Shown here piece after piece: positions 12,711 through 35,849 of a stretch of DNA of 35,849 bases. This DNA is from an uncultured Dehalococcoidales bacterium (GTDB taxonomy: Bacteria > Chloroflexota > Dehalococcoidia > Dehalococcoidales > UBA2162), in NCBI GenBank assembly GCA_964354005.1, contig CAYGYD010000003.1, forward strand, positions 1-35,849. Direction: 5' to 3'. A model generated the notes under the pieces. The model searched no databases. It was not told the DNA's origin and worked only from the letters and a program-made list of their open reading frames with translations. Within the stretch, counting starts at the first letter, position 1. Every line of letters starts with the position of its first letter. Made by a program: the position numbers and the translations under genes.

Positions 12711-12741
12711 GGCCAAAGGTATAGTACGGAGGTAAGTCCAG

Positions 12742-15266: not shown

Positions 15267-15267
15267 C

Positions 15268-16407: not shown

Positions 16408-16506
16408 CCCCTTCCCCTGAGAAGGGAAGGGGGAAGTAGTTTCAAAGAGGGGGGCTTTCGCCCCCCTCTTTCAGTTTTTTCCCCCCTCTCCTTGAAGGAG
16501 AGGGGG
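16408..16506. repeat. cluster of three tandem perfect GC-rich hairpins
   Basis: H1 at 16408-16432 is CCCCTTCCC-7-GGGAAGGGG. H2 at 16444-16471 is AAAGAGGGGGGC-tttc-GCCCCCCTCTTT, followed by a T6 run at 16475-16480. H3 at 16482-16506 is CCCCCTCTCC-5-GGAGAGGGGG, followed by ..GGGGGTGAGG. The cluster lies in a divergent intergenic region. Confidence 0.8.
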
Positions 16507-16580
16507 ACCAAGGGGGTGAGGACGACAGATACAGATAATGAGGATGAGGTGTCACTAATCATATGGACGAGCACACCAGC

Positions 16581-16610
16581 TTGACAGCCACCGAGGTCTG
16601 ATTTTAAGAT
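16581..16610 (+). promoter_or_regulatory. sigma70-like promoter (TTGACA-18-TAAGAT) for the MBL-hydrolase gene
   Basis: TTGACA at 16581-16586 and TAAGAT at 16605-16610. GGAAAGGTGG precedes ATG 16668. Confidence 0.5.
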
Positions 16611-16644
16611 AGCCGTATTGGCTAAAAGGCGAGGTCTTAAAATC
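16600..16644. promoter_or_regulatory. 10-bp perfect inverted repeat GATTTTAAGA-25-TCTTAAAATC overlapping the -10 box (candidate operator or leader hairpin)
   Basis: The arms are at 16600-16609 and 16635-16644. Each is preceded by GAGGTCT (16593-16599, 16631-16637). An inner hairpin TAGCC/GGCTA is present. Confidence 0.45.
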
Positions 16645-16667
16645 AAAAACTGGAAAGGTGGTTCACC

Positions 16668-17918: not shown

Positions 17919-17931
17919 ATTGCCAGGCAGC

Positions 17932-21201: not shown

Positions 21202-21228
21202 GCTACTCAGGCTTAAGCGGCGCCGTCC

Positions 21229-21262
21229 CAAAAAGAGAGAGGCGGCTACGCCGCCGCCTCTC
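21229..21262 (-). terminator. rho-independent terminator after the acyl-CoA synthetase gene
   Basis: The reverse strand reads GAGAGGCGGC-ggcgta-GCCGCCTCTC followed by TCTTTTTGGG. Confidence 0.8.
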
Positions 21263-21290
21263 CCGGAAAGATTCGTTATTGATGCCATGA

Positions 21291-23027
21291 CTAAGCCTTA
21301 TGCAGTCGCTTCGCTTTGGCCACGAATTCGTCCAGTCTCTTCTTGATAGTGATTTTGTCAAACTTGCCGACACTGGTCTTGGGGATATCATCGACGAAGG
21401 CAATGAACTCAGGCAGCATCCATCTGGTTATCTTGCCCTTGTCGATGCCCTCGGTCTCCAGGAATTTGATGACATCAGTTTCGTTCTGCTTGGCGCCGGG
21501 CACCGGCTTGATGAGAGCCATCGGCCGCTCCCCCCACTTCTCATCGGGCACGCCGACATAGGCGGCTTCTAGGACAAAGTCGGCAGTGGCGGTGAGGTTC
21601 TCCAGGAGGACGGTGGGCACCATTTCAGCGCCACTCCTGATGACATCGGTGATTCTATCGGCAATGATGATGTAGCCATCCTCGTCAATCTTAGCCGCGT
21701 CTCCCGTGTGGAACCAGCCATCTCGCCAGGCAGTAGCTGTTCTCTCCGGGTCTTTGAAGTATTGCTCCATAATCCAGTGGCCCCGGAGTATTATCTCGCC
21801 GATGGTCTTGTTATCGTGGGGCACGGGTTTACCCTGCTCATCAATGACCATAGCGTCAATTCCGAACATCGGCAGGCCGGTCTTGACTCTAACCTGGTCC
21901 AGCTTTTCCTTGGGCCAGTTCACCATATTGCGCTTGATTGTAGCGCCGATTGACCCCGCCAGGGTTTCGGTCATGCCGTAGCCGGAGCCAACAGTAAATG
22001 TCGGGAAGAGGGCTTCCGCCTTGGCTTTCAAGCCCAGTGGCAGAGCGGCGCCGCCAACGGCCACCCCTTGCAGGCTACTGAGGTCCCACTTCTTGATGTC
22101 CGGGTACTCGATAAGCATTGCCAGCATAGTCGGGACCATGGCAGTGCTGGTCACTTTCTCAGTCTGAACCAGCTCACAGAAGCTTTCGGGAGTGAAGCGA
22201 CCGGGGAAGACTATCTTGCTGGCCGAGACGACATAGTACCACGGTGCGCCCCAGGCATGGATGTGGAAAAGTGGTACATTGACCATTGGCACATTAACCA
22301 CCGGTTCTGGTGGCATGTCAGGTAACCGGGGGGTCATAGACATGGCAGTCAATAGATGCAGGGTCTGTAAGTAAATCTGCCGGTGGGTGAACAGAACACC
22401 CTTGGGTAGGCCGGTGGTGCCGGTGGTATAAAAGAGGACGGCGTAGGTGTCTTCAGGCAAGTGTGGCCAGTCAAACTCGGCCGGCTGGTCTTTTATTAAT
22501 TCTTCGTAATTATAGAGTGGTTCTATTCTCGTTTGTGGTTTTCCGGGTTTATCTGATATGTAAATGAATTTCTTCACTGTGCCCTTTATCTGGTCGTAGA
22601 GCATATCCAGTAGTGGCAGAATCAGGTCGTCAACGAAGATAATGGTATCTTCAGCGTGATTTATGGTGTAGGCAATGTGCTGGAGGGAGAGCCGGACATT
22701 TATTGGGTGGGACACCGCCCCCATACCAACGGTGGCGTAGATGAGTTCCAGGTGCTGGTTATGATTGAGGGCCATAGCGGCAATCCGGTCGCCCGGCTGG
22801 CCTGGCTTCCCCGGCTTTACGCCCAGAGCTTTGAGGGCGTTAGCGAGTTTACAGGTGCGTTCGTACCATTGCCGCCAGGTAAATCTGTGGTACTGGCCGG
22901 CGTCAGTCCGGTAGACGATGCCGATATCATCAGGATAGAGGCTGAGTGGCCGGTTCATGAGGTTGGTGAGAAGTAGTGGGTAGTGTGTGGTGTACTCAGG
23001 ATAAGTCCTTCCTTCCGTCTTTGCCAT
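21291..23027 (-). CDS. AMP-forming acyl-CoA synthetase / fatty-acid-CoA ligase family
   Basis: 578 aa, trimmed to MAKTEGR (ATG 23027, GGGAGA SD). The longer ORF would overlap the upstream binding-protein gene. The AMP-binding motif is YTTGTTGLPKG; GYGMTE and a C-terminal ..PKTSVGKFDK are also present. Confidence 0.85.
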   Translation of the reverse strand: MAKTEGRTYPEYTTHYPLLLTNLMNRPLSLYPDDIGIVYRTDAGQYHRFTWRQWYERTCKLANALKALGVKPGKPGQPGDRIAAMALNHNQHLELIYATVGMGAVSHPINVRLSLQHIAYTINHAEDTIIFVDDLILPLLDMLYDQIKGTVKKFIYISDKPGKPQTRIEPLYNYEELIKDQPAEFDWPHLPEDTYAVLFYTTGTTGLPKGVLFTHRQIYLQTLHLLTAMSMTPRLPDMPPEPVVNVPMVNVPLFHIHAWGAPWYYVVSASKIVFPGRFTPESFCELVQTEKVTSTAMVPTMLAMLIEYPDIKKWDLSSLQGVAVGGAALPLGLKAKAEALFPTFTVGSGYGMTETLAGSIGATIKRNMVNWPKEKLDQVRVKTGLPMFGIDAMVIDEQGKPVPHDNKTIGEIILRGHWIMEQYFKDPERTATAWRDGWFHTGDAAKIDEDGYIIIADRITDVIRSGAEMVPTVLLENLTATADFVLEAAYVGVPDEKWGERPMALIKPVPGAKQNETDVIKFLETEGIDKGKITRWMLPEFIAFVDDIPKTSVGKFDKITIKKRLDEFVAKAKRLHKA

Positions 23028-23088
23028 TACTGTCTCCCTTCTAAATGTAGTTCCAATCCCTGCCTGTAGCGAGCCCCGTGCTTGAGAA

Positions 23089-23116
23089 ATGGGGGTGGAA
23101 TTGAAACCACCCCCAT
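23089..23116 (-). terminator. hairpin after binding-protein gene copy A (ATGGGGGTGG-8-CCACCCCCAT)
   Basis: A perfect 10-bp stem, followed on the reverse strand by TTTCTCAAG. Confidence 0.5.
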
Positions 23117-23146
23117 TGTAAACAAATCTCCCTTTGATGACAAGCC

Positions 23147-24976
23147 CTATTTTCCGGTCATCTGCTTCCTCAGAGACAGGTCCCGCGAAGTGTATTTTTG
23201 CGTGAGCCAGTAATTGTAGTAGCCGACGCAATATTCACCGTGGTAGTTCTTTACCCAGGGCCACCACATGGTGTAGAGATACGCGTTCGGCTTGGGTATG
23301 ACATAGCACTGCTCAAGGAGGTACGGCATCAGGTCACGGTTGATTTGCATACACTTCATTTCGTCGATACCAACATATTTCTGCATCTCCAGGTAGGCCG
23401 CTTCGACGACGGAGTCATTTACGTAGCTTGGGTTGTAAATGCTACTACCTCTGAAGTTAATCATCTTCTGGTAGGTGCCGACGCCCGAAACCGCCACGTA
23501 CATAAACTCATTCGCGCCGTAGTTCCTTGCCGAGAACCTGGCAGTCCAGACGGCAACGTCTTTAGAATCGATTGTCAGGTCGATGCCGACCTTCGCCAGG
23601 TCAGACTTAAACATCGACATTACGTCTATATGGGCGGCGTAAGGCCCACAGATTACGCTGGATTTGAAGCCAGTGGGGTAGCCGGCTTTGGCGAGAAGCT
23701 CCTTAGACTTGGCCACATCGGGCCCTTTATAGAGCGCCTGGACATCCGCCGGAAGCTGGTCAAGCGGGACATAAAGGTCCTTGTATTCCTTGGGTGGTGG
23801 TGCTATCGGCCAGACCAGTAGCTCGGCGTCACCCATGTAGTACTGGTCCTTTACCGCCGTCAGGTTCAGGGCCAGCATTACCGCCTGGCGGACTTCTTTC
23901 TTGCTGAATGGTGACGCCGCCATGTCTGTCCTCATGCCCATGACCTCACTGCCATCAGTCATGAATCTCTTGGACTGTATCTTAAGCGTGGGGTCGTTCA
24001 AGACAGTTCCTATGTCAGAGAGTGACCGGCCGGCCAGCGAGTCAAGCTTGCCGGTGCGAAATGCTGATACTGTGGTGGGAACGTCTGGTATAATCAGGTA
24101 ATTAACCCCATCCACGTAGGGCAGCTGGTCCCCCTTCCCTGGGCCAACGGGGTTCTTCTCCCAGTAGTTCGGGTTCCTGATGTAGGTCGCGGAACCGTTG
24201 GAAACGAAGTCGGTCATAATGAATGGCCCGGTGCCGACGCTGTTGTGCCAGTCCTGCATATTGCCGTATTTGTTAACTACTTCAGGCGGAAATATGTGCA
24301 TATAGTCGGGTACCAGGGTTATCAAGTTGACCCACTCCGCCACGGGGCAGGTGACCGTAACCGTCCCGGTGGCATTATCGCCCGTGACCACGGCGCTCTT
24401 AGCCATGGCGGGGTAAGCCAGCGTGAAATAAGCCCCTTTGGTTGTGAATGCCCGCTTCAGGCAAAAGACAACATCGTCCACCGTCAGTTCCCGGCCATTG
24501 ACCAGCCGGCTTGCCTCGCTCTTGGAGTTAAGTGCATAGTGGACCCCTTTGCGGATGTGGAAGATTATCGTGCCTTGTTGCGGTATCTCCCAGCTCTCTG
24601 CCAGACAGCCGGCCTTCTGGTCCATGCGGTTACTGCCGGCCAGCGTCCACTCGACCTCGCCGGTGCCGGCCGGACCCTTCGCCCAGTCACCCTGCAATAA
24701 CTCCTCATTGGTGAAGCGAAGGCTCCAACAATAAATGTTAGCATTGACAGTGTCGTCAAAATACAGTATGTCATATTGCGACGAGACGACAGCCGTGCCT
24801 CCATACTGTGGCTTTTCTTCCCCTGGCGCTGTGGTGGGTGGTGCTGTTGTCGGGGGCGCTGTCGTGGGTGGTGTCGTTGTTGCCGGCGGTGGCGTGGTAG
24901 TCTCCTCACCGCAGGCGGCCAGTACCAGAGCAGTCACCGCCAGACAGGCTATCACCATCCATATTATCCTTTTCAC
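23147..24976 (-). CDS. ABC transporter substrate-binding lipoprotein, family 5 (DppA/OppA/NikA type), copy A
   Basis: 609 aa with a GTG start. The signal peptide ends in the lipobox LAAC. A Thr/Pro-rich tether follows. VGTGPFIMTDFV...NPNYWEK matches SBP_bac_5. Confidence 0.85.
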   Translation of the reverse strand: MKRIIWMVIACLAVTALVLAACGEETTTPPPATTTPPTTAPPTTAPPTTAPGEEKPQYGGTAVVSSQYDILYFDDTVNANIYCWSLRFTNEELLQGDWAKGPAGTGEVEWTLAGSNRMDQKAGCLAESWEIPQQGTIIFHIRKGVHYALNSKSEASRLVNGRELTVDDVVFCLKRAFTTKGAYFTLAYPAMAKSAVVTGDNATGTVTVTCPVAEWVNLITLVPDYMHIFPPEVVNKYGNMQDWHNSVGTGPFIMTDFVSNGSATYIRNPNYWEKNPVGPGKGDQLPYVDGVNYLIIPDVPTTVSAFRTGKLDSLAGRSLSDIGTVLNDPTLKIQSKRFMTDGSEVMGMRTDMAASPFSKKEVRQAVMLALNLTAVKDQYYMGDAELLVWPIAPPPKEYKDLYVPLDQLPADVQALYKGPDVAKSKELLAKAGYPTGFKSSVICGPYAAHIDVMSMFKSDLAKVGIDLTIDSKDVAVWTARFSARNYGANEFMYVAVSGVGTYQKMINFRGSSIYNPSYVNDSVVEAAYLEMQKYVGIDEMKCMQINRDLMPYLLEQCYVIPKPNAYLYTMWWPWVKNYHGEYCVGYYNYWLTQKYTSRDLSLRKQMTGK

Positions 24977-25095
24977 TTCTTACCTCCGTTTTTTGGTTCA
25001 ATTAGTCTACTCAAATTACGCTTCATCCTCACATATTACCCCTCCATTCTGTATTTGATTTGTTTCATCTTATTACGGGTCTGTGGGCGTTAAGC

Positions 25096-26037
25096 TCATG
25101 CCTTTGGCATTCTCTTCTTTACACCTCCGTAGCGCCCAAGGCCTCCTCTCAGCCTGGGGTCCAGCAGGTCTCTCAGGGCATCCCCGAACATGTTGATGCC
25201 GTAGACCACAATCGCCAGGGCCAAGCCGGGCCATAGTGCCAACTGTGGAGCCTGGAACATATCCAGGCGTCCCTGACTGAGCATGCCACCCCAGCTGGGA
25301 ATCGGCGGGGGAATACCGTAGCCGAGGAAGCTTATACTTGACTCAACGAGGATAGAACTCCCGATACTTACAGTGAATATGATAATCAGGGGAGCCATAA
25401 TATTGGGCAAGAGATGCCGGATGAGTATCCTCCAGGTGGGACAGCCGATTGACCTGGCTGCCTCAACATAAACATTCTCCTTGACGGCGATAACGGCGCT
25501 TCTGATTGTCCTTGAACCAGTAATGCCATACAGTACACCCAGGACTATTATCATCTGAAGAATACCCGGTCCGAGGATGGCCATTATTGTCAATATGATG
25601 AATATACCCGGGAAGCACATCCAGGCATCAACAAATCGCTGAATTATCAGGTCGGTTTTGCCACCTGCAAAACCGGAAATGAGACCTATAATTGCATTCA
25701 GCACGACTCCGATGGTACTGACTCCCAGACCGACATACATGGAGATACGAGCTCCGTAGATGATACGGCTGAGCACATCCCGTCCCAAATTATCTGTTCC
25801 CAGCCAGAAATGTGCTGTTGATGAACCCAGCTTGGGTCCTACCCAGACCTCGTTGTAGCCATAAGGGGCCAGCCAGTTGGCAAAGATGCCAGCCAGCAGC
25901 AGCAGCAGAACGATGGCGGCACCCACTGTACCCAGCGGCTTCTCCCTGACGAGTCTTATAAACACATCAATCAGGAAAGGACGCCGCTTCTCTGCCGCAA
26001 ACGCACCAACCTCTACACTTCTTATACCCTCGGCCAT
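25096..26037 (-). CDS. ABC transporter permease, DppC/OppC type, copy A
   Basis: 313 aa. LGTDNLGRDVLSRIIYGARIS and the EAA-type loop AARSIGCPTWRILIRHLLPN are present. Confidence 0.85.
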   Translation of the reverse strand: MAEGIRSVEVGAFAAEKRRPFLIDVFIRLVREKPLGTVGAAIVLLLLLAGIFANWLAPYGYNEVWVGPKLGSSTAHFWLGTDNLGRDVLSRIIYGARISMYVGLGVSTIGVVLNAIIGLISGFAGGKTDLIIQRFVDAWMCFPGIFIILTIMAILGPGILQMIIVLGVLYGITGSRTIRSAVIAVKENVYVEAARSIGCPTWRILIRHLLPNIMAPLIIIFTVSIGSSILVESSISFLGYGIPPPIPSWGGMLSQGRLDMFQAPQLALWPGLALAIVVYGINMFGDALRDLLDPRLRGGLGRYGGVKKRMPKA

Positions 26038-26052
26038 TTTCGGTTTCTCCCT

Positions 26053-27045
26053 CTACCGGTAGCGAATCCTGGGGTCCAGCCAGGCATAGCTCACGTCAAC
26101 CAGCAGATTGACCACCAGAATGACGCTGGCCAATACCAGGTTCACTCCTGAGACTATCGGGTAATCTCTCGCACTAAGAGAGTCAAGCAGGAGCCGTCCC
26201 ATCCCGGGCAGGACGAATATCTGCTCCATGATAACCGAGCCCCCGATTAGAACGGGTAACTGGAGCCCGACAATAGTCACTACTGGAATCAGGGCGTTCT
26301 TCAGGGCATGCCTGACGACGACTACGCTTTCGCGCAGACCCTTTGACCAGGCCGTCCGGATGTAGTCCTGCCGGAGCACCTCCAGCATCATGGTGCGCGT
26401 CATTCTCATGGCGGTGCCGGACATGGCCATGCCCATAAGTATCCCCGGGATTATGAATTGTTTCAAGTTGGCCCACAAATCCCGGGTGATGGGGTAGTAT
26501 ACTACCGGGGGCGTCCAATGCCACCACATTGAGGGGAAGACGAAAACCATAGTGGCAATCCAGAAGCTGGGGACGGCGATGCAGAATATGGCAAAGCTAC
26601 GCCCAAAGTAGTCGCCTGCCGTATCCTGCCGTATTGCTGAGTAGATACCTATGGGGAAGGCCAGCAGCAGCCCGGTTATTATGGCTATAATGCCAAGTTC
26701 CAGGGATATTGGGATGCGCTTAAATATCTCATCGCGTATTACGCGCTGTGACCAAAGTGACTTACCAAGGTCACCCTCGAAGACACCGGAAAAGGCGCCA
26801 TCCTTCTGCGGCCATGCTCCCAGCCAGCGCAGGTACTGCTTCCAGATTGGCACATCCAGGCCCAGTTGCTCCCTGACGATGACAACCATTTCCTCCATAC
26901 TCACATCCGATTCTCTGTACCTGTCCGCCACCATCAATTCTACTAGCGAGCCCGGAATGAAACGAACGGAAAGGAAGACTATTATGGTGACGAGAAAAAG
27001 GGTGGGAATTATCAGCAGGAGTCGCCTGATAATATAAGTGTGCAC
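26053..27045 (-). CDS. ABC transporter permease, DppB/OppB type, copy A
   Basis: 330 aa with a GTG start preceded by AGGAGG. MHTYIIRRLLLIIPTLFLVTIIVF and DYIRTAWSKGL match the DppB consensus. Confidence 0.85.
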   Translation of the reverse strand: MHTYIIRRLLLIIPTLFLVTIIVFLSVRFIPGSLVELMVADRYRESDVSMEEMVVIVREQLGLDVPIWKQYLRWLGAWPQKDGAFSGVFEGDLGKSLWSQRVIRDEIFKRIPISLELGIIAIITGLLLAFPIGIYSAIRQDTAGDYFGRSFAIFCIAVPSFWIATMVFVFPSMWWHWTPPVVYYPITRDLWANLKQFIIPGILMGMAMSGTAMRMTRTMMLEVLRQDYIRTAWSKGLRESVVVVRHALKNALIPVVTIVGLQLPVLIGGSVIMEQIFVLPGMGRLLLDSLSARDYPIVSGVNLVLASVILVVNLLVDVSYAWLDPRIRYR

Positions 27046-27137
27046 CGTGCCCTCCTACTTTTATCAGCCTTAAGGTAAGGCGTCAACTGCTATCCGCACA
27101 CAACGCGCTTGTGGCCGATGCCACCGACTTGCTAAGA

Positions 27138-27166
27138 ATTATCAGGCAGTCTGTCTGGTTTGTCAA
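27138..27166 (-). promoter_or_regulatory. sigma70-like promoter of transporter copy A (TTGACA-17-GATAAT)
   Basis: On the reverse strand, TTGACA is at 27161-27166 and GATAAT at 27138-27143. The same geometry is conserved in copy B. Confidence 0.55.
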
Positions 27167-27301
27167 GCGGTATTACTGGCCAGCATTATAGATGATAGCA
27201 GAAATATCATGGAGACGGGAGGTATTATCAATATCCCGGGGTAAACTGAAGTTCTATCGCCCGTTCCGGCCCGCTTCTCCGGCCGTGGCATAACAATGCT
27301 A

Positions 27302-27334
27302 CTGGGGCCGGAAGCCGTGAACTCCCGGCCCCAG
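27302..27334 (-). terminator. hairpin after binding-protein gene copy B (CTGGGGCCGG-13-CCGGCCCCAG)
   Basis: A perfect 10-bp stem lies 12 nt after the stop at 27346. There is no clear U-tract. Confidence 0.4.
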
Positions 27335-27345
27335 TATAGCTCGGT

Positions 27346-29148
27346 CTATCTTCCAGTCAACTGCTTCTTCAGGTCCTGGTCAATCCAGACATACTTGGTA
27401 TAGGTGCTCCAGTTATAGTAGCCGACATTCCATTCACCATGGTAGTTCTTTACCCACGGCGTCCAGAATTCATGGTAATAGGGCCAGGGCGGTGCTATAA
27501 CATAAGCCTGGTCCAGCAGGTACGGCATTAGCTCCGCGTGCAGTTGGTCCATCTTGGGTTCGTCAAAGAGTAGTGTCTCCATCTTCGTGCGTGCTTCCTC
27601 CACCTTGGGGTCATTGATGTAACTGGCGTTATACTGAGCCGGACCCCGGATGTTAATCATCTTGTAGTAGGTGCCGATGCCGGAGACATAGGTATAGAGC
27701 ATAGAATCGAAGTTCCGGGAGACCAGTATTGAGGTCCAGACGGCGTACTCCTTGGCGTCAATCGTCACATCAACCCCGACCTTGGCCCACATGCCTTTGA
27801 GGAGAGACATCAGGTCGGTCTGCGACGATGTGTTGTAGCAGACCAGTTTGGCTTTAAAGCCGCTGGGGTAGCCGGCCTCCGCCAGAAGCTGTTTGGCTTT
27901 GTCCGGATTATACCCTTCATATAGTTCCCTCACTGACGCCGGGAGCTGCTCCAGGGGCACAAAGGCATTCTTGTATTCTTTGGTCTTTATTACTGGCCAG
28001 TTCAGCAGCTCAGCGTTACCGCCGTAGTAGGTGTTCTTTATCTGGTCTTTGTCCAGAGCCAGGCAGAGAGCCCGCCGCACCCGGATATCGGAGAAAGGTG
28101 AGTCCTTTTTGTCTTGCCTCATGCAGATGGGATAGACGGAGTCCCACTGGTAGGTGGTAAATTTTAGCTCCGGATTGGTCTTCTTGATATTGGCGGCGTC
28201 ATCCCAGGCAACACTGTCTACGCGGTCAAGCTTGTGTGTCCGCAGTGCCGAATAGCGGGTAGACATGTCCGGTATTATCAGCATCTTGACGCCGTCCAGG
28301 TAGGGCAGCTTATTTCCCTTCCCCGGGCCAACGGGGTCTTTCTCCCAGAAATCGGGGTTCTTGACATAGGTCACTGAGGCGTTGGAGACGTAGTCGGTCA
28401 TCATAAAGGGCCCGGTGCCAACGCTGTTCCGCCAGTCCCTCATGTCTCCGTACCTCTCCACCACTTCGTGCGGTATTATGGCGGCATAATCAGGGTACAG
28501 GCTTACGGCGTCGCCAAAATACTCTGGCTGGCATTTGATGACCACGGTCCACTTGTCCGGCGCGGTTACGGTGGTGGTTTTGGCCATCCCGGAGTACTGC
28601 ACCCGGAAATATGAGGTGGGTAGCGTGCTGTAGCGGGTGAGGGAGTAGACTACATCATCAGCGGTGAGCTCCCGGCCGCTTACCAGCTTGCTCGCCGCAC
28701 TGTTTGGGTTCAGGGCCCACTTGATTCCCTGGCGGATGTGGAAAATCATAGTTTGCTTATCCGGTATCTCCCAGCTTGTCGCAATGGAGGGTGCCTTGCC
28801 GTCCACACGGTTGACACCACCCAGTATCCAGTCGAACTCACCCGTGCCGGCGGCACCTCTGGCCCAGTCACCCTGCCACAGTTCCTCATTGGTGAGCTTC
28901 AGAGTATAGGTCAAATAATGAGCGGTAAACCCCTCATCAAAACCCAGTACATCCACGGTAAGGCCAAGAGTCATCACGCCGCCGTATTGTGGCTGTCCCG
29001 TCGGCGGCTTCGTGGTAGGCGGTGCGGTGGTTGGTGGTGTCGTTGTTGTTGGCGGTGGTGTCGTTGTCGCTGCCGGGCCACAGGCGGCCAATACGAGAGC
29101 GGTCACGGCCAGACAAGCCATTACCATCCATACCATTTTCCTTTTCAC
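27346..29148 (-). CDS. ABC transporter substrate-binding lipoprotein, family 5, copy B
   Basis: 600 aa with a GTG start, lipobox LAAC and a Thr/Pro tether. It is colinear with copy A, sharing blocks such as NSVGTGPF.MTD.VSN, PVGPGKG..LPY.DGV and TPWVKNYHGE. Confidence 0.85.
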   Translation of the reverse strand: MKRKMVWMVMACLAVTALVLAACGPAATTTPPPTTTTPPTTAPPTTKPPTGQPQYGGVMTLGLTVDVLGFDEGFTAHYLTYTLKLTNEELWQGDWARGAAGTGEFDWILGGVNRVDGKAPSIATSWEIPDKQTMIFHIRQGIKWALNPNSAASKLVSGRELTADDVVYSLTRYSTLPTSYFRVQYSGMAKTTTVTAPDKWTVVIKCQPEYFGDAVSLYPDYAAIIPHEVVERYGDMRDWRNSVGTGPFMMTDYVSNASVTYVKNPDFWEKDPVGPGKGNKLPYLDGVKMLIIPDMSTRYSALRTHKLDRVDSVAWDDAANIKKTNPELKFTTYQWDSVYPICMRQDKKDSPFSDIRVRRALCLALDKDQIKNTYYGGNAELLNWPVIKTKEYKNAFVPLEQLPASVRELYEGYNPDKAKQLLAEAGYPSGFKAKLVCYNTSSQTDLMSLLKGMWAKVGVDVTIDAKEYAVWTSILVSRNFDSMLYTYVSGIGTYYKMINIRGPAQYNASYINDPKVEEARTKMETLLFDEPKMDQLHAELMPYLLDQAYVIAPPWPYYHEFWTPWVKNYHGEWNVGYYNWSTYTKYVWIDQDLKKQLTGR

Positions 29149-29257
29149 TTCTTACCTCCCTTATTTTTGCTGAATGAGTCTCCTCAAATCGCGTTTCACC
29201 CTCACATATTACCCCTCCATTCTGTATTTGTTTCATCTTATTATGGGTCGGTGGGCG

Positions 29258-30202
29258 CTAAGCTTGTGCTTTTGGCATTCTCTTCTTTACACCTCCGTAA
29301 CGGCCGAGGCCGCCCCTCAACCTTGGGTCAAGCAGGTCTCTAAAGGCATCGCCCAGCATGTTGATACCGTAGACGACAACCGCCAGGGCCAGGCCGGGCC
29401 ACAGTGCCAACCAGGGCGCCATGAGCATATACCGGCGTCCGCCTTCACTGAGCATGCCGCCCCAGCTCGGCGTCGGGGGCGGAATACCGTAGCCGAGGAA
29501 GCTGATGCTGGCTTCGGTGATAATCGCGGCCCCCATAGTTATGGTGAAAAGGATCATTATGGGCGCCATAACATTGGGCAGGATATGCCGGAGAAGTATC
29601 CTCCAGGTGGGACAGCCAACCGCTTTGGCCGCCTCAATGTAGATATTGGTTCGAGTGCCGATAACAGCGCTTCGTATTACCCTTGACTGGCCGATGCCAT
29701 ACAATAGTCCCAGGACTATTATCACCTGCACCAAACCCGGGCCAACGACCGCTATTATGGCGAGGATGAGAAACAGTGGTGGCAGGCACATCCAGGCATC
29801 AACAAATCGCTGAATCACCGTGTCAACCCTACCGCTGAGGTAGCCGGAAACAATTCCGATGACGGCCGCCAAAGCTGTGGCGATAGCGGAAGTGCCCAGC
29901 CCGACATACATGGAGATGCGCGCCCCGTAGATGATGCGACTGAGCAAGTCCCTCCCAAGATTGTCTGTGCCCAGAAGGTTACTGATTGAAGGCGGACTCA
30001 GGCGCTCCGCCACATAGATTTCATTATAACCATAGGGAGCCAGTATGTTAGCCAGAATGCCCACCACCAGCAGCAGGAGAACTATGACTCCGCCGACTGT
30101 CCCCAGCGGTTTTTCCTTGACCAGCCTGATGAACAGGTCAACCAGAAAGGGGTATCTCTTGGCCTCCTTGGCTCTCAAAGGCATTGCTACCGCGCCGTTC
30201 AT
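29258..30202 (-). CDS. ABC transporter permease, DppC/OppC type, copy B
   Basis: 314 aa. The C-terminus DLLDPRLRGGLGRYGGVKKRMPKA is identical to copy A. Confidence 0.85.
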   Translation of the reverse strand: MNGAVAMPLRAKEAKRYPFLVDLFIRLVKEKPLGTVGGVIVLLLLVVGILANILAPYGYNEIYVAERLSPPSISNLLGTDNLGRDLLSRIIYGARISMYVGLGTSAIATALAAVIGIVSGYLSGRVDTVIQRFVDAWMCLPPLFLILAIIAVVGPGLVQVIIVLGLLYGIGQSRVIRSAVIGTRTNIYIEAAKAVGCPTWRILLRHILPNVMAPIMILFTITMGAAIITEASISFLGYGIPPPTPSWGGMLSEGGRRYMLMAPWLALWPGLALAVVVYGINMLGDAFRDLLDPRLRGGLGRYGGVKKRMPKAQA

Positions 30203-30218
30203 TTCAGCTCCCTTGTGT

Positions 30219-31175
30219 CTATCGGTATTGAACCCTGGGGTCTAAATAGGCGTAGATAAGGTCAATTACCAGGTTAACGATTAGGACAAAAGCAGCCATG
30301 ACCAGGTTTATCCCGGAAAGGATGGGATAGTCCCTTCGGCCCAGAGCCTCAACGAGATAACGACCTACGCCGGGGAGGACAAATATCGTCTCCATGATGG
30401 CTGACCCGCCAATCAGAATGGGTATCTGAAGTCCGATTATGGTCACCACCGGTATCAGTGCATTCTTCAAGGCATGCCGGGTAACAACTACTCTTTCCGC
30501 CAGCCCTTTTGACCAGGCCGTCCGTATGTAATCTTGCCTCAGTACCTCCAGCATCATGGTGCGTGTCATTCTCATGGTGGTGCCGGACATGACCATCCCC
30601 ATAATGACGCCCGGGATGATGAATTGGACCATATTGGCGGCCGGGTTGCTGGTAAAGGGGATGTACTCCATTGACGGCGTCCAGTTCCACCAGACCGACG
30701 GAAAGACGATGACCATTGTCCCCAGCCAGAAGCTGGGGAGAGAGATACAGAGTATGGCGAAGGAACGCCCCATGTAGTCACCGCCGGTGTCCTGCCGTAT
30801 GGCCGAATATATGCCGATGGGGAGGGCAATAAGCAACGCGGTTATTATTGCCAGGACGCCGAGTTCAAAGGATATCGGCAGTTTCGCGGCCAACTCTGTA
30901 GTTATGCTGCGGCCGCTCCACAGGGACTCGCCCAGGTCACCGCGAAAGGCAGACCCGACCCACTGCCCGTACTGGACATAAATCGGCACATCCAGCCCCA
31001 TCTCGTGCCGTAAGCGCAGAATGGCTCCCTCACGGTCTTCCGTCACGCCCATCTCAGAGACCATAATGTCAATAACATCGCCCGGAACGAAGCGGACTGA
31101 CAGGAAGACTATTATGGTGACGAGAAACAGGGTGGGAATTATCAGCAGGACTCGTCTGATAATATAAGTACGCAC
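30219..31175 (-). CDS. ABC transporter permease, DppB/OppB type, copy B
   Basis: 318 aa with a GTG start. MRTYIIRRVLLIIPTLFLVTIIVFLSVRF is near-identical to copy A. Confidence 0.85.
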   Translation of the reverse strand: MRTYIIRRVLLIIPTLFLVTIIVFLSVRFVPGDVIDIMVSEMGVTEDREGAILRLRHEMGLDVPIYVQYGQWVGSAFRGDLGESLWSGRSITTELAAKLPISFELGVLAIITALLIALPIGIYSAIRQDTGGDYMGRSFAILCISLPSFWLGTMVIVFPSVWWNWTPSMEYIPFTSNPAANMVQFIIPGVIMGMVMSGTTMRMTRTMMLEVLRQDYIRTAWSKGLAERVVVTRHALKNALIPVVTIIGLQIPILIGGSAIMETIFVLPGVGRYLVEALGRRDYPILSGINLVMAAFVLIVNLVIDLIYAYLDPRVQYR

Positions 31176-31267
31176 CCTACCCTCCCCTTTCCTTAGCCTT
31201 AGAGTAAGGCCTTAACTGCTATCCGAACACAACTTGCTTCGGTCGATGCCACTGTCTTAGTTAAGAA

Positions 31268-31296
31268 TTATTACCCACTTTCCACTAGGTTGTCAA
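31268..31296 (-). promoter_or_regulatory. sigma70-like promoter of transporter copy B (TTGACA-17-TAATAA)
   Basis: On the reverse strand, TTGACA is at 31291-31296 and TAATAA at 31268-31273. It sits at the position homologous to the copy A promoter. Confidence 0.5.
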
Positions 31297-31527
31297 ATGG
31301 TATTACTGGCCGGCATCACGGATGATATCAGAAGTATCACGGAGACGGCGGGTATTACCAATATCCCGGTGTAAACCGCTGGTGACAATAGCAATCGCCG
31401 AATCGCGCTCGGGCTCGGCGAAGCCAGCGAGGCGTTTTGGGACTGTTCGTGATTAGTTTAGTGTCGGGCTAACCTGTCCTGTTTCTTATCCGGCAAAAAG
31501 CAGTGGGGAACTCCCGGAGGTTTTCTT

Positions 31528-31567: not shown

Positions 31568-32359
31568 ATGAAGCGGGCAATAACGGCGGGGATAGACATC
31601 GGCGCGGCCACTTCCAAAGCGGTGGTTCTGGAGGGCAATCAGATATTGTCCTACTGTATCATCCCCACCGGTGCCGAGAGTGTGGGGTCGGCGCAAAGGG
31701 TGATGAGCGAGGCGCTGAAGAAGGTGAGTAACCTGTCTCTGCCGGATATTGGCTGGGTTATTGCCACCGGGTATGGGCGGGTTATCGTGCCCTTCGCCAG
31801 TGAAACGGTGACGGAAATCTCCTGCCACGCTCGCGGCGCGAGCTGGATTTTCCCCAATGTGAGAACGGTGCTGGATATGGGCGGGCAGGACTGCAAGGCC
31901 ATCCGCTGTGACGAGCAGGGGAGGCTGGTCAACTTTGTCATGAATGACAAGTGCGCTGCTGGCACGGGCCGATTTCTAGAGGTAATGGCGCAGGTAATGG
32001 AGTTGCCTCTGGAGGATATTGGCGGTTTATCCTTGCAGGCAAGCCAGGAAATTCGCATCAACAGCACCTGTACTGTCTTTGGGAAATCCGAGGTAGCCTC
32101 GCTGATTCGCCAGGGTAAGGACCGGAAGGATATTTTGGCAGGATTGCATGTCGCCATCGTCAATCGGGTGCACAATCTACTAAGGAAAGTCGGCATCAAG
32201 CCGGAACTGGCTATTACCGGCGGCATTGCCAAGAATATGGGCGTCGTTCGCCGTCTGGAGGAGAGGGTGGGATTAACCGCTCTCTTGCCTCCCGAGCCCC
32301 AGATTGTGGGGGCGCTGGGGGCCGCCCTCTTCGCCCAAGAGAGGCTGGCCAGAAAATAA
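31568..32359 (+). CDS. BcrA/BcrD/HgdC-family ATPase (acyl-CoA dehydratase activase / benzoyl-CoA reductase ATP-binding subunit), copy 1
   Basis: 263 aa. It has an ASKHA-fold N-terminus (GIDIGAATSKAVV). The [4Fe-4S]-bridging Cys motifs NDKCAAGTGRFLE and STCTVFGKSEV are present, as is ITGGIAKN. Confidence 0.85.
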   Translation: MKRAITAGIDIGAATSKAVVLEGNQILSYCIIPTGAESVGSAQRVMSEALKKVSNLSLPDIGWVIATGYGRVIVPFASETVTEISCHARGASWIFPNVRTVLDMGGQDCKAIRCDEQGRLVNFVMNDKCAAGTGRFLEVMAQVMELPLEDIGGLSLQASQEIRINSTCTVFGKSEVASLIRQGKDRKDILAGLHVAIVNRVHNLLRKVGIKPELAITGGIAKNMGVVRRLEERVGLTALLPPEPQIVGALGAALFAQERLARK

Positions 32360-32375
32360 ATAAGGGGGGAAGACT

Positions 32376-33614
32376 ATGGTTACATCAACCAGTGCCAGAA
32401 AAGCTTTGCAGACAACGCTTGAGGTGCCAACATTACGGAAGAAGTACTATGCTCAGACTCTTGATGATTCCAAGAAGGGCAAGAAGGTAGCCTGGTGCAG
32501 TAACAATATCCCGGCGGAAATTCTGGATGCCATGGATGTCACCGCGGTATTTCTGGAAAACTATGCCACGGTGATTGCCGCCAAGAAGCTGGCGTCAGCC
32601 TATTGTATCGCTGGAGAAAAGGTTGGCTTCTCCCCGGATGTGTGCGGCTACGCCCGGATGCTCATGGGCTATATCCTGGCGCGGAGTGAAGTGCCCGAAG
32701 CTCCTTACGGTGGTCTGGCCAAGCCCGACTTTTTGCTGGTGAACAGCTATAGTTGTGACTCGCGGCTGGGCTGGTTTTCGGCGATGAGCCGGACCCTCAA
32801 TATCCCGCTCCATGTCCATGATGCACCCCACCAGCCGGACGGCGCCTGTGATTTGGCACACTACGCCGATTATACCGAGCGGGAACTGCGGAGCCTCGTT
32901 GCCTTTCTTGAGGAGCAGACGGGCGCGAAATTCAATCCGGACCGACTGAGACAGCGCCTGGCCCTGGCCCGGCAGACGAGCGAGATTCTTTTTGAGATAA
33001 ATGAACTGCGTAAGGCCGTGCCCTGCCCGATGGGGTCGGCGGATATGTTTACCGCCGTCTGGCCGGCACTATACATGGCCGGGACTAAAGGGTGCGAAGA
33101 TTTTTACCATCGGCTACGGACTGAGGTTGAGGAGCGCATTGCCAGAAAAACCGGGGTTGTGCCGGAGGAGAAGTTCCGACTGATGTGGAGCGGCATCCCC
33201 TTCTGGTATAACATGGGCCTCTTGAACTATGTTGAAGAATTTGGTGGGGTGGTCGTGATTGAGGGGTTCTACCGTTCGCGGGAGCACCGGCTTCCGGCTC
33301 AGAACGATGACCCCATCCGGGATATGGCCTTGAGCTCCACCCGACAGCGCGGCTGGCCAGCAAGTATTCTTAGCTCCATTGATGACCTGCTGGATGCCGT
33401 CAAGGAATACCGTATTGATGGGGTTGTCCTGTCCTTCAACCCATCCTGCCGGCTGTCCTATGTCTCGCAGGGAGAACTGCAGAGAGCGGTGGAAGACCGC
33501 GGCGTAGCCACTCTCGGTCTGGAGTGCGATATGGCTGACGAGCGTACTTACTCCGAGGGCCAGGTCAAAACCAGGCTGGATGCTTTTGTTGAGCGGCTGC
33601 TGGCCAAGAAGTAA
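32376..33614 (+). CDS. 2-hydroxyacyl-CoA dehydratase/benzoyl-CoA reductase family subunit (BcrC/BadD/HgdB-like)
   Basis: 412 aa. VAWCSNNIPAEILDAMDV.., ..VCGYARM.., SYSCDSR and FNPSCRLS are the spaced Cys blocks typical of the HAD/BCR (BcrAD_BadFG partner) family. Confidence 0.75.
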   Translation: MVTSTSARKALQTTLEVPTLRKKYYAQTLDDSKKGKKVAWCSNNIPAEILDAMDVTAVFLENYATVIAAKKLASAYCIAGEKVGFSPDVCGYARMLMGYILARSEVPEAPYGGLAKPDFLLVNSYSCDSRLGWFSAMSRTLNIPLHVHDAPHQPDGACDLAHYADYTERELRSLVAFLEEQTGAKFNPDRLRQRLALARQTSEILFEINELRKAVPCPMGSADMFTAVWPALYMAGTKGCEDFYHRLRTEVEERIARKTGVVPEEKFRLMWSGIPFWYNMGLLNYVEEFGGVVVIEGFYRSREHRLPAQNDDPIRDMALSSTRQRGWPASILSSIDDLLDAVKEYRIDGVVLSFNPSCRLSYVSQGELQRAVEDRGVATLGLECDMADERTYSEGQVKTRLDAFVERLLAKK

Positions 33615-33645
33615 CCGTACTGAAGTCTGCTTTCAGGGGAGAAGA

Positions 33646-34755
33646 ATGATGGAAGAATTTCGTCAAAATCGGCTCAACCGCCATCAAACTGCCATTCGGT
33701 GGAAGGAAGATAAAAAGAGCCAGGTAATCGGTACTTTGTGTTGCTGTGTTCCTGAGGAGATTATTCACGCCGCCGGCATGTTGCCCGTCCGCATTCTGGG
33801 GGCGCATGAAGAGACCACTGAAGCCGACCTGCATTTTCCCACCAACCTCTGCCCCTACTGTAAGAGTACCTTCGACCAGGCATTGAAAGGAAAATATGAT
33901 TATCTGGATGGGCTGGTTATCCCCAATGTCTGTAACATGATTAAAGCTATGTATGGCTTCAGTAAACTTCTGCTGGATATTCCCTTCATCTACTTTCTGG
34001 AAGTGCCCCAGCGGCTGGGCAGTAACGGCGCAGAATTTTTTGCCGAGGAGCTGGTGCGCTTTAAGGAATCGCTGGAAAATTTCTTCGGGAGAGAGATTAC
34101 CAGTGAGGCACTACGCCGTTCCATCAAGGTCTATAACGATAACCGGGTTCTTTTGAAGAGGATGTACGAACTGAGAAAGCGGTCGCCGCCGTTAGTATCA
34201 GGCACGGAAGCTCAGGAGATAGTCATCTCGAGCATGCTGATGCCCAAGGAATTGCATAACTGGCTGCTGGGGCAGTTTCTAGAGTGGGTTCAGAAGCGTG
34301 ACGACCCACCCAAATCGGGGGTCAGGCTTTTCCTGTCAGCCAGCGTCCTGGATGATACTGATTTCGTGCAACTGATTGAGGAGTGCGGTGGCAGCGTCGT
34401 CGCTGATGACATGCCGATGGGCAGTCGGTACTTTTCCGGGGCGGTCGCCCAGAACCGCAACCCGTTCTATGCGCTGGCTGACCGCTATCTGAACAAGATT
34501 GCCTGCCCCCGTAAGATGTTGCCTGCTGAGAGGCTGGCCTTCGGCGACCAGATGATGCGTGGGGCCAAAGTCAAGGGCGCTATCATCCACAGTATGCGGG
34601 CCTGCGACCCCCACCTGTACGAGTACCCACTGCTGAAAGCGAAGTTAGAAAGCCAGGGCTTACCTGTCCTGTTCTTCCGGGGCGAGGAGACAGAAACGGA
34701 GCGGGAACAGCAAAAGACGGATATTGAAGCCTTCATTGAGATGCTTGGGGCCTAG
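33646..34755 (+). CDS. 2-hydroxyacyl-CoA dehydratase/benzoyl-CoA reductase family subunit (BcrB/BadE/HgdA-like)
   Basis: 369 aa, trimmed to MMEEF (ATG 33646, GGGGAGAAG SD). Matching blocks are GTLCCCVPEEIIHAAGMLPVRI, NLCPYCKS, PNVCNMIK and HSMRACDPH. Confidence 0.75.
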   Translation: MMEEFRQNRLNRHQTAIRWKEDKKSQVIGTLCCCVPEEIIHAAGMLPVRILGAHEETTEADLHFPTNLCPYCKSTFDQALKGKYDYLDGLVIPNVCNMIKAMYGFSKLLLDIPFIYFLEVPQRLGSNGAEFFAEELVRFKESLENFFGREITSEALRRSIKVYNDNRVLLKRMYELRKRSPPLVSGTEAQEIVISSMLMPKELHNWLLGQFLEWVQKRDDPPKSGVRLFLSASVLDDTDFVQLIEECGGSVVADDMPMGSRYFSGAVAQNRNPFYALADRYLNKIACPRKMLPAERLAFGDQMMRGAKVKGAIIHSMRACDPHLYEYPLLKAKLESQGLPVLFFRGEETETEREQQKTDIEAFIEMLGA

Positions 34756-34770
34756 GCGGAGTGAGTTTTG

Positions 34771-35556
34771 ATGCTGGTCGCTGGAGTGGATGTTGGTGCC
34801 AGGAATATTAGCGTCGTGGTACTGCGGGATGGTGAAGTTGTCTCCTCAGACCGGTTCACTGTGGGGGGGGAGGGGGCCGCGGCTTCACGGGCGGCGCTGG
34901 CTGAGGTGCTGAAAAAGGCGAGCCTGAATCAGACTGACCTGCGGGCGGTGGTAGCGACGGGGTGTGGGGCGGAGAGTGTTGCCTTTGCCCAGCGTCAGAG
35001 TGCTGAGGTGGTCTGTCAGGCGAAGGGTGCTCACTTTTTATTCCCCTCGGTCAGGACGGTGCTTAACCTGGGTGCCGAGAGCAGTCGGGCCATCAGAGTC
35101 GGCGAGACGGGGCGTGTTGAAGCCTTTGCCAAGAATGATAAGTGTGCCGCGGGGTCAGGACTGTTTCTGGAAACGATGGCCAAGGTCCTAGAGGTGCCCC
35201 TGGAGCAGATGGGCGAGCTTTCTTTGCAGGCTGGGGGTTTTGAGGAGGTCAGTGGCATCTGTGCCGTCTTTGCCGAGTCGGAGGTCATCTCCCATATCCA
35301 CCGTGGGGTACCCAAAGACCGCATTCTGGCCGGTTTGCACAAGGCGGTCGTCGGACGGATTCTGGAGGTCCTGGCCAAGGTAGGCGTGAAAAAGGATGTG
35401 GTCGTCACCGGAGGGGTAGCTAAGAATGGGGCCATTATCAAGGAACTGGCGGACAGAATTGGGCTTGACATAATTGTGCCGCCGGAACCACAGTTGGTCG
35501 GGGCACTGGGCGCGGCGCTCATTGCTCGCGACCTGGCGACCAAGTCTCGCCAGTAA
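34771..35556 (+). CDS. BcrA/BcrD/HgdC-family ATPase, copy 2 (divergent paralog of 31568-32359)
   Basis: About 261 aa, with an alternative TTG start at 34768. GVDVGARNISVVV, NDKCAAGSGLFLE, GICAVFAESEV and VTGGVAKN are present. Confidence 0.85.
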   Translation: MLVAGVDVGARNISVVVLRDGEVVSSDRFTVGGEGAAASRAALAEVLKKASLNQTDLRAVVATGCGAESVAFAQRQSAEVVCQAKGAHFLFPSVRTVLNLGAESSRAIRVGETGRVEAFAKNDKCAAGSGLFLETMAKVLEVPLEQMGELSLQAGGFEEVSGICAVFAESEVISHIHRGVPKDRILAGLHKAVVGRILEVLAKVGVKKDVVVTGGVAKNGAIIKELADRIGLDIIVPPEPQLVGALGAALIARDLATKSRQ

Positions 35557-35611: not shown

Positions 35612-35849
35612 ATGGTCAATACCCGATTAGACCTGGAGCTATTTAAGATAAATCCGGCTTTATTTATTGAGAAGGTAATCAAGGAATACGCCGCCGAAAG
35701 CTCGGCTAACCATCTCAAGGTTCTGGACAATAACCTTATTTTTGACGAGCCACTGGTTGGCTTGGCTGACGGTGATGACCCTATCTTCCTTGCTTACAAG
35801 AAAGTAGTGGCTGATTCTCACCTGACGCCGCGGGAAGCATTTGAAATGC
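35612..35849 (+). CDS. partial ORF (79 codons, runs off the right edge); N-terminus resembles QueG/reductive-dehalogenase-superfamily Fe-S proteins
   Basis: AGGAGG at 35601-35606 lies 5 nt before ATG 35612. MVNTRLDLELFKINPALFIEKVIKEYAAESSANHLKVLDNNLIFDEPLVGLADGDDPIFLAYKKVVADSHLTPREAFEM. The block IFDEPLVG.ADGDDP.F..YK.....HLTPRE recalls epoxyqueuosine-reductase-like proteins, but this rests on memory only and no Cys motifs are in view. Confidence 0.4.
   Translation, partial: MVNTRLDLELFKINPALFIEKVIKEYAAESSANHLKVLDNNLIFDEPLVGLADGDDPIFLAYKKVVADSHLTPREAFEM

Follow-up and report, generated by a model that had tools for sequence, protein, structure and literature searches.

A conserved four-gene module with two dissimilar Bzd-like ATPases in an uncultured Dehalococcoidales bacterium, a candidate ATP-dependent CoA-thioester reductase

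In a 35,849-nucleotide stretch of DNA from an uncultured Dehalococcoidales bacterium (contig CAYGYD010000003.1 of assembly GCA_964354005.1; the whole stretch is called the window below), we analysed four genes on the forward strand that encode two ATPases of the benzoyl-CoA reductase (BCR) activase family and, between them, two subunits of the 2-hydroxyacyl-CoA dehydratase/BCR family. The first gene, ATP1 (31568-32359), encodes a BzdQ-type ASKHA metallo-ATPase of 263 residues (PF01869 BcrAD_BadFG, E 6e-60). It is followed by alpha (32376-33614), a BzdO/HadB-type active-site subunit of 412 residues (PF06050 HGD-D, E 1e-70), by beta (33646-34755), a BzdN-type subunit of 369 residues (PF06050 HGD-D, E 4e-89), and by ATP2, a BzdP-type ATPase-fold subunit that starts at a TTG at 34768 (262 residues) or an ATG at 34771 (261 residues) and ends at 35556 (PF01869, E 4e-46). 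The ATG is probably the true start of ATP2, because its closest homologues are 261 residues long. The start of beta, ATG 33646, is internal to a longer open reading frame (ORF) that opens at 33580; since the beta orthologues have 366-376 residues and a AGGGGAGAAGA ribosome-binding site stands before this ATG, 369 residues is the right length. A purine-rich ribosome-binding site lies ahead of all four genes, and the intergenic gaps are 16, 31 and 15 nt, the last being 12 nt with the TTG start of ATP2. Scanning the window with Rfam and a tRNA search revealed no RNA genes, and the promoter and terminator scan gave weak, near-chance matches only.

An earlier note on this DNA, made from the sequence alone, had described two ATPases bracketing HGD-D subunits of 412 and 369 residues in one tight operon, and all four ORFs and the gaps were reproduced here. 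The two ATPases are indeed clearly diverged, as it had said, being 46% identical to each other, and the NDKCAAG and CxVFxxSE contexts of the cluster ligands are present in both. The A-C-B-D-like gene order that it proposed was wrong. Because the 412-residue protein is of the BzdO/BcrB/HadB type and the 369-residue protein of the BzdN/BcrC/HadC type, the order is BzdQ-BzdO-BzdN-BzdP (Q-O-N-P), which is A-B-C-D in Bcr letters. That the order is unlike known layouts holds for bzdNOPQ, as judged from the Bzd loci fetched for this work; the contrast with bcrCBAD is that drawn in the earlier note. Nor is the size of the ATPases, about 262 residues, unusual as had been thought, the solved MbdQ and MbdP chains having 269 and 273 residues.

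The four-gene operon is real and conserved. The order ATP1-alpha-beta-ATP2 is kept in the related loci L004/5, L006, L007, L009/L023, L010, L012-L016, L021, L022, L024 and L025, across which the identity of alpha runs from 93% down to 60%, and the module is kept as a unit in at least 12 contigs of metagenome-assembled genomes (MAGs) assigned to Chloroflexota or labelled "delta proteobacterium", two MAGs carrying the latter label. The named homologues belong to Dehalococcoidia, Dehalococcoidales and Chloroflexota MAGs, and metagenomes of sediment, wetland, peat and soil are the source of the DNA runs containing the sequence. Purifying selection acts on all four genes. Measured against the L007 orthologues, which are 93% identical, the ratio of nonsynonymous to synonymous substitution rates (dN/dS) is 0.12 for ATP1, 0.17 for alpha, 0.10 for beta and 0.12 for ATP2, and for ATP2 it stays at 0.08-0.12 against more distant orthologues, so that ATP2 is not a decaying duplicate. 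Two genes look frameshifted or uncalled in the long-contig assemblies of relatives, namely ATP1 in L006 (9091-10380) and beta in L014 (9193-10348); these are more likely sequencing or assembly errors than real pseudogenes.

The two ATPases differ sharply in their nucleotide sites. ATP1 scores best among the NCBIfam equivalog models against BzdQ (242 bits, cut-off 380) and lies above the cut-off of the generic activase domain model TIGR00241 (254.7 bits, cut-off 125.4). Its phosphate-1 motif, DIGAATSK (31595-31618), keeps the Lys, the orthologues reading DIGS(S/A)(T/S)SK, and its phosphate-2 motif, DMGGQDCK (31874-31897), is canonical and identical in BzdQ orthologues. By motif comparison, Cys129 (NDKCAAG) and Cys168 (CTVFGKSE), at 31952-32071, would be the ligands of a [4Fe-4S] cluster that bridges the subunits, and ATP2 retains both cluster cysteines, Cys126 (NDKCAAG) and Cys165 (CAVFAESE; 35143-35262), together with the GG(V)AKN adenosine motif. 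The phosphate-1 motif of ATP2 reads DVGARNIS (34789-34812), with the Ser-Thr pair and the Lys lost, and the phosphate-2 motif reads NLGAESSR (35065-35088) instead of DxGGQDxK. In DCCP-R, the homodimeric reductase of the double-cubane cluster protein (DCCP), S9-N11 and Q92-D94 make the contacts with the ATP phosphates, and the candidates for the catalytic base are D94 and E69 (PMC9351452). ATP2 is without equivalents of S9, T10, the Gln and D94 of DCCP-R. The degenerate site is itself conserved: every ATP2 orthologue reads DVG(A/S)xN(V/I)S and N(L/I)G(A/T)ES(S/N/T)R, and the exact NLGAESSR occurs in 81 of the 120 best ATP2 homologues (sequence clusters), most of the others being one residue off.

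For comparison, BzdP and BzdQ orthologues were taken from metagenome loci of bzdNOPQ order (L029-L108) that had been fetched using BzdN, and the ATPase trees were built by neighbour-joining. In the resulting tree, ATP1 groups with BzdQ and with one ATPase of a related module, L028 (L028_B), at a bootstrap of 91, and ATP2 groups with BzdP and the other ATPase of that module (L028_A) at a bootstrap of 79. The statement that these are two different BCR-like ATPases is upheld by these groupings. The motifs follow the same division. BzdQ orthologues read ILDMGGQDCKA and ITGGIAKN, as does ATP1, and BzdP orthologues read D(V/I)GAEEGR and NEKCAAGAG, a degenerate site that resembles that of ATP2. ATP2 goes beyond BzdP in that the first Asp of phosphate-2 and the Lys of phosphate-1, both of which BzdP keeps, are also gone. 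The delta subunits of the Thauera type (MbdP, BcrD-like) keep DIGGQT(M/V)K and GSTYTK, with only the last Asp lost. On the evidence of motifs and tree, the ATPase pair of the window is of the BzdQ/BzdP type, and its asymmetry appears to be common to authentic Bzd enzymes.

Two other explanations of the ATPase pair were considered. A tree limited to the PDB references HadI, HgdC, MbdQ, MbdP and DCCP-R paired ATP1 with ATP2 (bootstrap 81). A duplication of the ATPase independent of BCRs was withdrawn as an explanation, ATP1 joining BzdQ and ATP2 joining BzdP once Bzd orthologues had been added. The degenerate site as a novelty of the clade was likewise rejected, a similar site being present in BzdP orthologues. 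In the literature examined, we found no mention of the asymmetry between a canonical BzdQ and a degenerate BzdP in authentic-looking bzdNOPQ operons.

Beta stands closest to BzdN. Its PDB matches are BzdN (E 1.8e-63, or about E 2e-63, at 35% identity) and HadC (E 1e-45), in line with the earlier note's view of the module as BCR-like, and its NCBIfam scores are 220 bits for BzdN (cut-off 454) and 205 bits for HadC (cut-off 700). The [8Fe-9S] double cubane of BzdN is held by Cys36, Cys73, Cys100, Cys263, Cys293 and Cys327 (PMC11971306). In the alignment, Cys32 of the beta pair Cys32-Cys33 (33739-33744) corresponds to Cys36; Cys69 and Cys96 (33850-33933) correspond to Cys73 and Cys100 and would be ligands of the proximal sub-cluster; and Cys287, Cys320 and His323 (34504-34614) correspond to Cys293, Cys327 and His330. 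At the position of Cys263 stands Pro257 (34414-34416), within DDMP(M/A/V)G(S/T)RYF. The window beta and its whole clade accordingly have five of the six double-cubane cysteines (positions 1, 2, 3, 5 and 6), with an invariant Pro at position 4. All six positions are kept in DCCP, in BzdN, in the relatives L017-L020 and in L028, four (2, 3, 5 and 6) in HadC and three (2, 3 and 6) in MbdN. The distal environment is also kept in the clade, where Arg49, Arg261, Lys/Arg284 and His323 correspond to BzdN Arg53, Arg267, Arg290 and His330; where beta has Arg49 and His323, HadC has Gly and Glu, and in place of Cys32/33 it has Pro/Val. In the tree of beta-type sequences, the window clade is held together with a bootstrap of 100 and lies outside the BzdN, HadC/MbdN and DCCP groups.

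The loss of the fourth ligand goes together with a gain next to the first, as a second Cys directly after ligand 1 is invariant throughout the window clade. Cys33 is this clade-specific extra and a candidate replacement ligand. We surveyed 159 beta-type sequences (50%-identity representatives, fetched loci and PDB references) and counted those that keep ligand positions 1 and 5. A single Cys at position 1 with position 4 kept is the usual state (n = 96); a Cys-Cys doublet is found with position 4 lost in 12 sequences and with position 4 kept in 4, and a single Cys with position 4 lost was seen once. In the nearest outgroup pair, P0274 has the doublet together with the fourth Cys, and P0262 has the doublet together with Ser at position four, a pattern that fits a stepwise relocation of the ligand. 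Cys33 may substitute for the lost fourth ligand. Tandem cysteines are known to bind one [4Fe-4S] cluster in complex I (cluster N2) and in adenosine 5'-phosphosulfate reductase. The ligand pattern suggests that the cluster of beta is probably a double cubane, with a predicted role in passing on and storing electrons.

Alpha is equally distant from the known families, its PDB matches being HadB (E 1.6e-38), BzdO (E 3.9e-34) and MbdO (E 3e-29), with 27% identity to each; the NCBIfam scores are 170 bits for HadB (cut-off 750) and 130 bits for BzdO (cut-off 449). None of the NCBIfam equivalog cut-offs considered (BzdN, BzdO, BzdQ, HadB, HadC) is reached by the proteins of the module, and together with the distance of alpha this agrees with the earlier view of the system as uncharacterised and not orthologous to a described BCR or dehydratase. 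The residues around the cluster are retained in the alignment with BzdO: Glu61 (32556-32558) corresponds to the catalytic Glu65, Cys90 and Tyr92 (32643-32651) to Cys95 and Tyr97, Cys127 of the motif Cys127-Asp-Ser-Arg130 (32754-32765) to the cluster ligand Cys128, Cys358 (33447-33449) to Cys380, and Trp40 to Trp46. With the three cluster Cys, the Glu, the Trp and the Tyr all kept, the prediction for alpha is a [4Fe-4S] cluster in which one iron site is open. The three Cys, the open iron site and the Glu are common to BzdO and to the alpha subunits of 2-hydroxyacyl-CoA dehydratases, and so they do not discriminate between the families.

The shell around this core is a different matter. Across eight BzdO orthologues taken from bzdNOPQ loci, the least similar at 53% identity, 18 active-site positions are invariant, among them His131, Gln274, Tyr298, Leu302 and Glu381-Gly382-Leu383; position 44 is Ser/Gly. 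The roles of the BzdO active-site residues in the proton relay and in binding the thioester are those given in PMC11971306. The window clade alters 11 of the 18. His131 is replaced by an invariant Arg (Arg130 of alpha) in SCDSR(L/M)GW, Cys129 by Asp, Gln274 by Ile/Leu and Tyr298 by Phe/Ala/Leu; the position of Leu302 is variable; and Glu381-Gly382 is replaced by Arg-Leu/Met (Arg-Leu follows Cys358 in the window), the position of Leu383 being variable. As far as can be judged from the alignment, the machinery around the cluster is kept, and the putative shell for substrate and proton relay matches neither BzdO nor HadB.

How these features place the module can be seen by comparison with the characterised systems. 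In the Bzd enzyme of Azoarcus/Aromatoleum, for which the BzdNO structures are 8S02, 8S1T and 8S2R (PMC11971306), there are four different subunits, each with a counterpart in the window module (ATP1-BzdQ 44-51% identical, alpha-BzdO 27%, beta-BzdN 35%, ATP2-BzdP 38-45%), and again one ATPase is canonical and one degenerate; the window module differs in its Q-O-N-P order (N-O-P-Q in Bzd), in the Pro at the position of BzdN Cys263 and in the added Cys-Cys doublet. The 3-methylbenzoyl-CoA reductase MbdONQP (9G87, 9GAI), our reference for the Thauera type, has the same four-subunit layout with two different ATPases, and ATP1 is 48% identical to MbdQ; however, MbdN has only three of the six Cys positions, and ATP2 shares only 31% identity with MbdP and groups elsewhere. 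DCCP, with six Cys in each subunit, is a homodimer served by the homodimeric DCCP-R (6ENO, 7YYL; PMC9351452; PMC11971306). It has the same folds, and beta keeps most of its [8Fe-9S] ligand pattern, whereas the window module combines two unlike catalytic subunits, of which alpha has three ligand Cys only, with two unlike ATPases. The dehydratase references (HadBC 3O3M, HadI 4EHT, HgdC 1HUX) belong to the same families, PF06050 and PF01869, but there a single homodimeric activator is used, in contrast to the two non-identical ATPases that the window clade conserves. No Bzd or Bcr reference operons turned up in the plasmid collection, where the finds were limited to YjiL/YjiM-like systems and others that are uncharacterised. 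One of the latter, L026 on Azoarcus sp. KH32C plasmid pAZKH (NC_020548.1, 626673-630864), is another uncharacterised two-ATPase layout, with a 300-residue activase, a 685-residue protein annotated as a 2-hydroxyacyl-CoA dehydratase and a 414-residue HGD-D protein, adjoined by an AraC regulator and a ferredoxin; the N-terminal part of the 685-residue protein matched the MbdP ATPase query, which suggests an ATPase fused to an HGD-D domain.

Because both ATPases and beta are closest to their Bzd counterparts and the cofactor plan (a bridging cluster, a probable double cubane, and a cubane with an open site and Glu) matches that of Bzd, and because the active-site shell differs from that of BzdO, we lean towards the interpretation that the module encodes a reductase of the Bzd type that depends on ferredoxin and ATP and whose substrate is a CoA thioester different from benzoyl-CoA. 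In such an enzyme, ATP1 with its canonical ATP site and ATP2 with its degenerate site would pair as a heterodimer that holds one [4Fe-4S] cluster on two cysteines per subunit. Reduced ferredoxin would give this bridging cluster an electron, and MgATP binding and hydrolysis, mainly or only at ATP1, would drive the electron uphill into the cluster of beta, probably a double cubane whose distal half would be held on Cys32-Cys33 and Cys287, not on three separate cysteines. From there, the electron would move on to the open-iron-site [4Fe-4S] cluster of alpha, where the CoA thioester would be reduced, Glu61 taking part in proton transfer. If there is a single working nucleotide site, at most one ATP would be spent per electron. 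That the substrate is a CoA ester fits with the genes that recur loosely near relatives of the module, those of alpha/beta-hydrolases and of CoA-ester enzymes (AMP- and ADP-forming acyl-CoA synthetases, enoyl-CoA hydratases, acyl-CoA dehydrogenases, acyl-CoA mutases and CoA-transferases), which do not give its identity. The enoyl-CoA hydratases are only sporadic in the relatives.

Several points weigh against this interpretation. Alpha scores slightly better on HadB than on BzdO; BzdO His131, Gln274, Tyr298, Glu381 and Gly382 are all replaced, and Val44, Ile274, a basic residue at 381 and Leu382 are common to HadB and the window clade. The order ATPase-alpha-beta is also that of the had, hgd and fld operons, in which the activator precedes alpha and beta (hadI-hadB-hadC). 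One double-cubane ligand is missing, which makes the type of the cluster uncertain, and the trees are neighbour-joining trees of limited samples, with deep nodes that lack resolution. In one lineage (L001-3 and L008, alpha 86% identical), alpha and beta occur without an adjacent ATPase gene. In about 15 contexts inspected, there is no conserved neighbour of any kind, and a dienoyl-CoA pathway set of the dch/had/oah kind was not found in the window or in the contexts of relatives. Spending ATP stoichiometrically would be a heavy burden on an anaerobe short of energy, and no RNA runs holding the sequence were found.

The main rival is a redox-neutral radical 2-hydroxyacyl-CoA dehydratase, or a related ketyl-radical enzyme, activated by a BzdQ/BzdP-like heterodimer, in which ATP and one electron would be needed only catalytically. 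This we consider rather unlikely. The scores of alpha, the HadB-like residues at positions 44, 274, 381 and 382 and the dehydratase-like gene order just mentioned all argue for it; the peptide transporters and the indolepyruvate:ferredoxin oxidoreductase (IOR) encoded in the window would fit amino-acid fermentation, and a family III CoA-transferase adjoins the related L028 module. However, the tree puts the ATPases with BzdQ and BzdP and away from HadI and HgdC; Cys32, Arg49 and His323 of beta are all missing in HadC, and beta falls outside the HadC-like group; and the HadB and HadC equivalog cut-offs are far off. Moreover, neither a family III CoA-transferase nor an (R)-2-hydroxyacid dehydrogenase was found by Pfam in the window or beside the four-gene modules of relatives. 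The earlier note had spoken of an uncharacterised ATP-driven low-potential reductase or dehydratase; that the system is BCR-like and uncharacterised is borne out, and of the two chemistries that of a reductase is tentatively preferred here from the sequence.

A true reductase of benzoyl-CoA, or of a simply substituted benzoyl-CoA, as a KEGG-style annotation of Dehalococcoidia genomes would assume, appears improbable. Every subunit has a Bzd counterpart, the equivalents of Trp46, Glu65 and Tyr97 are kept, and bzdNOPQ-type class I BCRs have been reported in marine Chloroflexi single-cell genomes (PMC5736913). On the other hand, most of the BzdO-invariant active-site positions (11 of 18) are changed, alpha is only 27% identical to BzdO with the equivalog cut-offs unmet, and the window has no set of dienoyl-CoA hydratase, dehydrogenase and ring hydrolase. 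Still less probable is a reductase that resembles DCCP and acts on a small molecule other than a CoA ester, with alpha supplying a new open-iron site. Such an enzyme would be consistent with the match of both catalytic subunits to the NCBIfam double_cubane model (104 and 196 bits, cut-off 350) and with flanks that are inconsistently CoA-related, but DCCP and its reductase are homodimeric with six Cys in each DCCP subunit, as described above, where the module has two catalytic subunits and in alpha only the three proximal Cys, and alpha retains the Trp and Tyr that in BzdO pack against and hydrogen-bond the acyl-thioester. Finally, it is very hard to credit that ATP2 is a relic duplicate without function, leaving an ATP1 homodimer with alpha and beta as the active enzyme, as its degenerate phosphate-binding motifs and the lineage without both adjacent ATPase genes might suggest, since the dN/dS of ATP2 (0.08-0.12) is as low as that of the other three genes, about 120 clusters preserve the degenerate motif, neither the two cluster cysteines nor the adenosine motif have been lost, and BzdP has an equivalent asymmetry; the degenerate, non-expressed duplicate envisaged in the earlier note is, expression aside, contradicted by the same evidence.

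The preferred interpretation, a Bzd-type reductase of another CoA thioester, might be extended to the related module L028 (Ga0209164_1000084, 6804-16126). Its alpha is 41% identical to that of the window and has the same Cys-Asp-x-Arg motif, and of its two ATPases, likewise, the canonical one groups with ATP1 and the degenerate one with ATP2. It differs in its order, beta-alpha-degenerate ATPase-canonical ATPase (N-O-P-Q), and in its beta, where all six Cys are present and the Cys-Cys doublet is absent. The module is bordered by the family III CoA-transferase, a GntR regulator and two sets of tripartite ATP-independent periplasmic (TRAP) transporter genes, a context which suggests that an imported carboxylic acid is activated and then processed. 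The features of L028 therefore place the window clade in a wider uncharacterised Bzd-like group. We tentatively propose, as a possibility short of an even chance, that the clade and its N-O-P-Q cousins form an unstudied branch of ATP-coupled low-potential reductases, acting on a non-benzoyl CoA thioester, with an Arg-flanked [4Fe-4S]-OH2 site, a distal half-cluster held by Cys-Cys and one working nucleotide site, and widespread in Chloroflexota of sediment, wetland and peat. No description of the window clade was found in the literature examined, in which class I BCR of Chloroflexi was assigned by annotation or from bzdNOPQ-type clusters.

Dehalococcoidia and subsurface genome surveys often report "class I BCR" by annotation alone, and the window module would be so counted. 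As its active site is without most of the BzdO-invariant residues, counts of BCRs based on annotation may overstate the capacity for anaerobic benzoate degradation. To our knowledge, class I benzoyl-CoA reductases are the sole ATP-run biological counterpart of the Birch reduction, and few have been characterised. If a different thioester is indeed reduced here, the known chemistry of the family would be widened. The module would also offer two natural variants, a putative double cubane in which one ligand has moved, and an ATPase heterodimer, one of whose sites is strongly degenerate, the latter bearing on the ATP spent per electron.

The genes around the module do not name its substrate. Besides the module, the window encodes IorA and IorB (12742-15266), an ornithine-cyclodeaminase-family protein, a metallo-beta-lactamase/alkyl-sulfatase-like protein, an ABC-2 exporter, an acyl-CoA synthetase of the AMP-forming kind and two peptide-type ABC cassettes that run divergently from the module. 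In L007, the relative at 93% identity, only the IOR, the ABC-2 genes and the module are collinear with the window. L007 is without 15278-17933 of the window, with the ornithine-cyclodeaminase-family and metallo-beta-lactamase/alkyl-sulfatase-like genes, and without 21208-31521, 10 kb with the synthetase and the two peptide cassettes; these two differences are recent insertions or deletions between close relatives. The link of the module to the nearby IOR and acyl-CoA synthetase, drawn in the earlier note, is therefore not conserved, L007 having no synthetase and more distant relatives, in about a dozen other loci, having unrelated flanks, and because of this the guess of an aryl-, arylacetyl- or aryllactyl-CoA substrate has no specific support. 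Downstream, a gene starts at 35613, 57 nt 3' of ATP2, of which the window holds 35613-35849. In L007 (11221-13541), its orthologue encodes a protein of 314 residues with a C-terminal Fer4_16 double-cluster domain, and after it comes a tungsten-type aldehyde:ferredoxin oxidoreductase that is apparently split or frameshifted (438 residues and a further ORF).

A few minor features of the window may be recorded. The ORF of the IOR beta subunit opens at GTG 14475, so that its first 175 nt or so coincide with the end of the alpha-subunit ORF, which runs to 14649; the true beta start is probably further downstream. On the reverse strand, 23147-31175 holds the two peptide cassettes in tandem, each with one family-5 solute-binding protein (609 and 600 residues) and two permeases. 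There are no ABC ATPase genes in the window, and both binding proteins have a lipoprotein-like LAACG signal and a long Thr/Pro-rich linker. Near the start of the window, 1036-4185 encodes a protein of 1049 residues with an N6 DNA methylase domain and a Type ISP C-terminal specificity domain, adjoined by three ORFs without a Pfam match (4189-4941, 5189-6439 and 6536-7015). The G+C content at about 2000-8000 is 0.47-0.49, as against 0.53-0.58 elsewhere, and this stretch may be an acquired restriction-modification or defence island.

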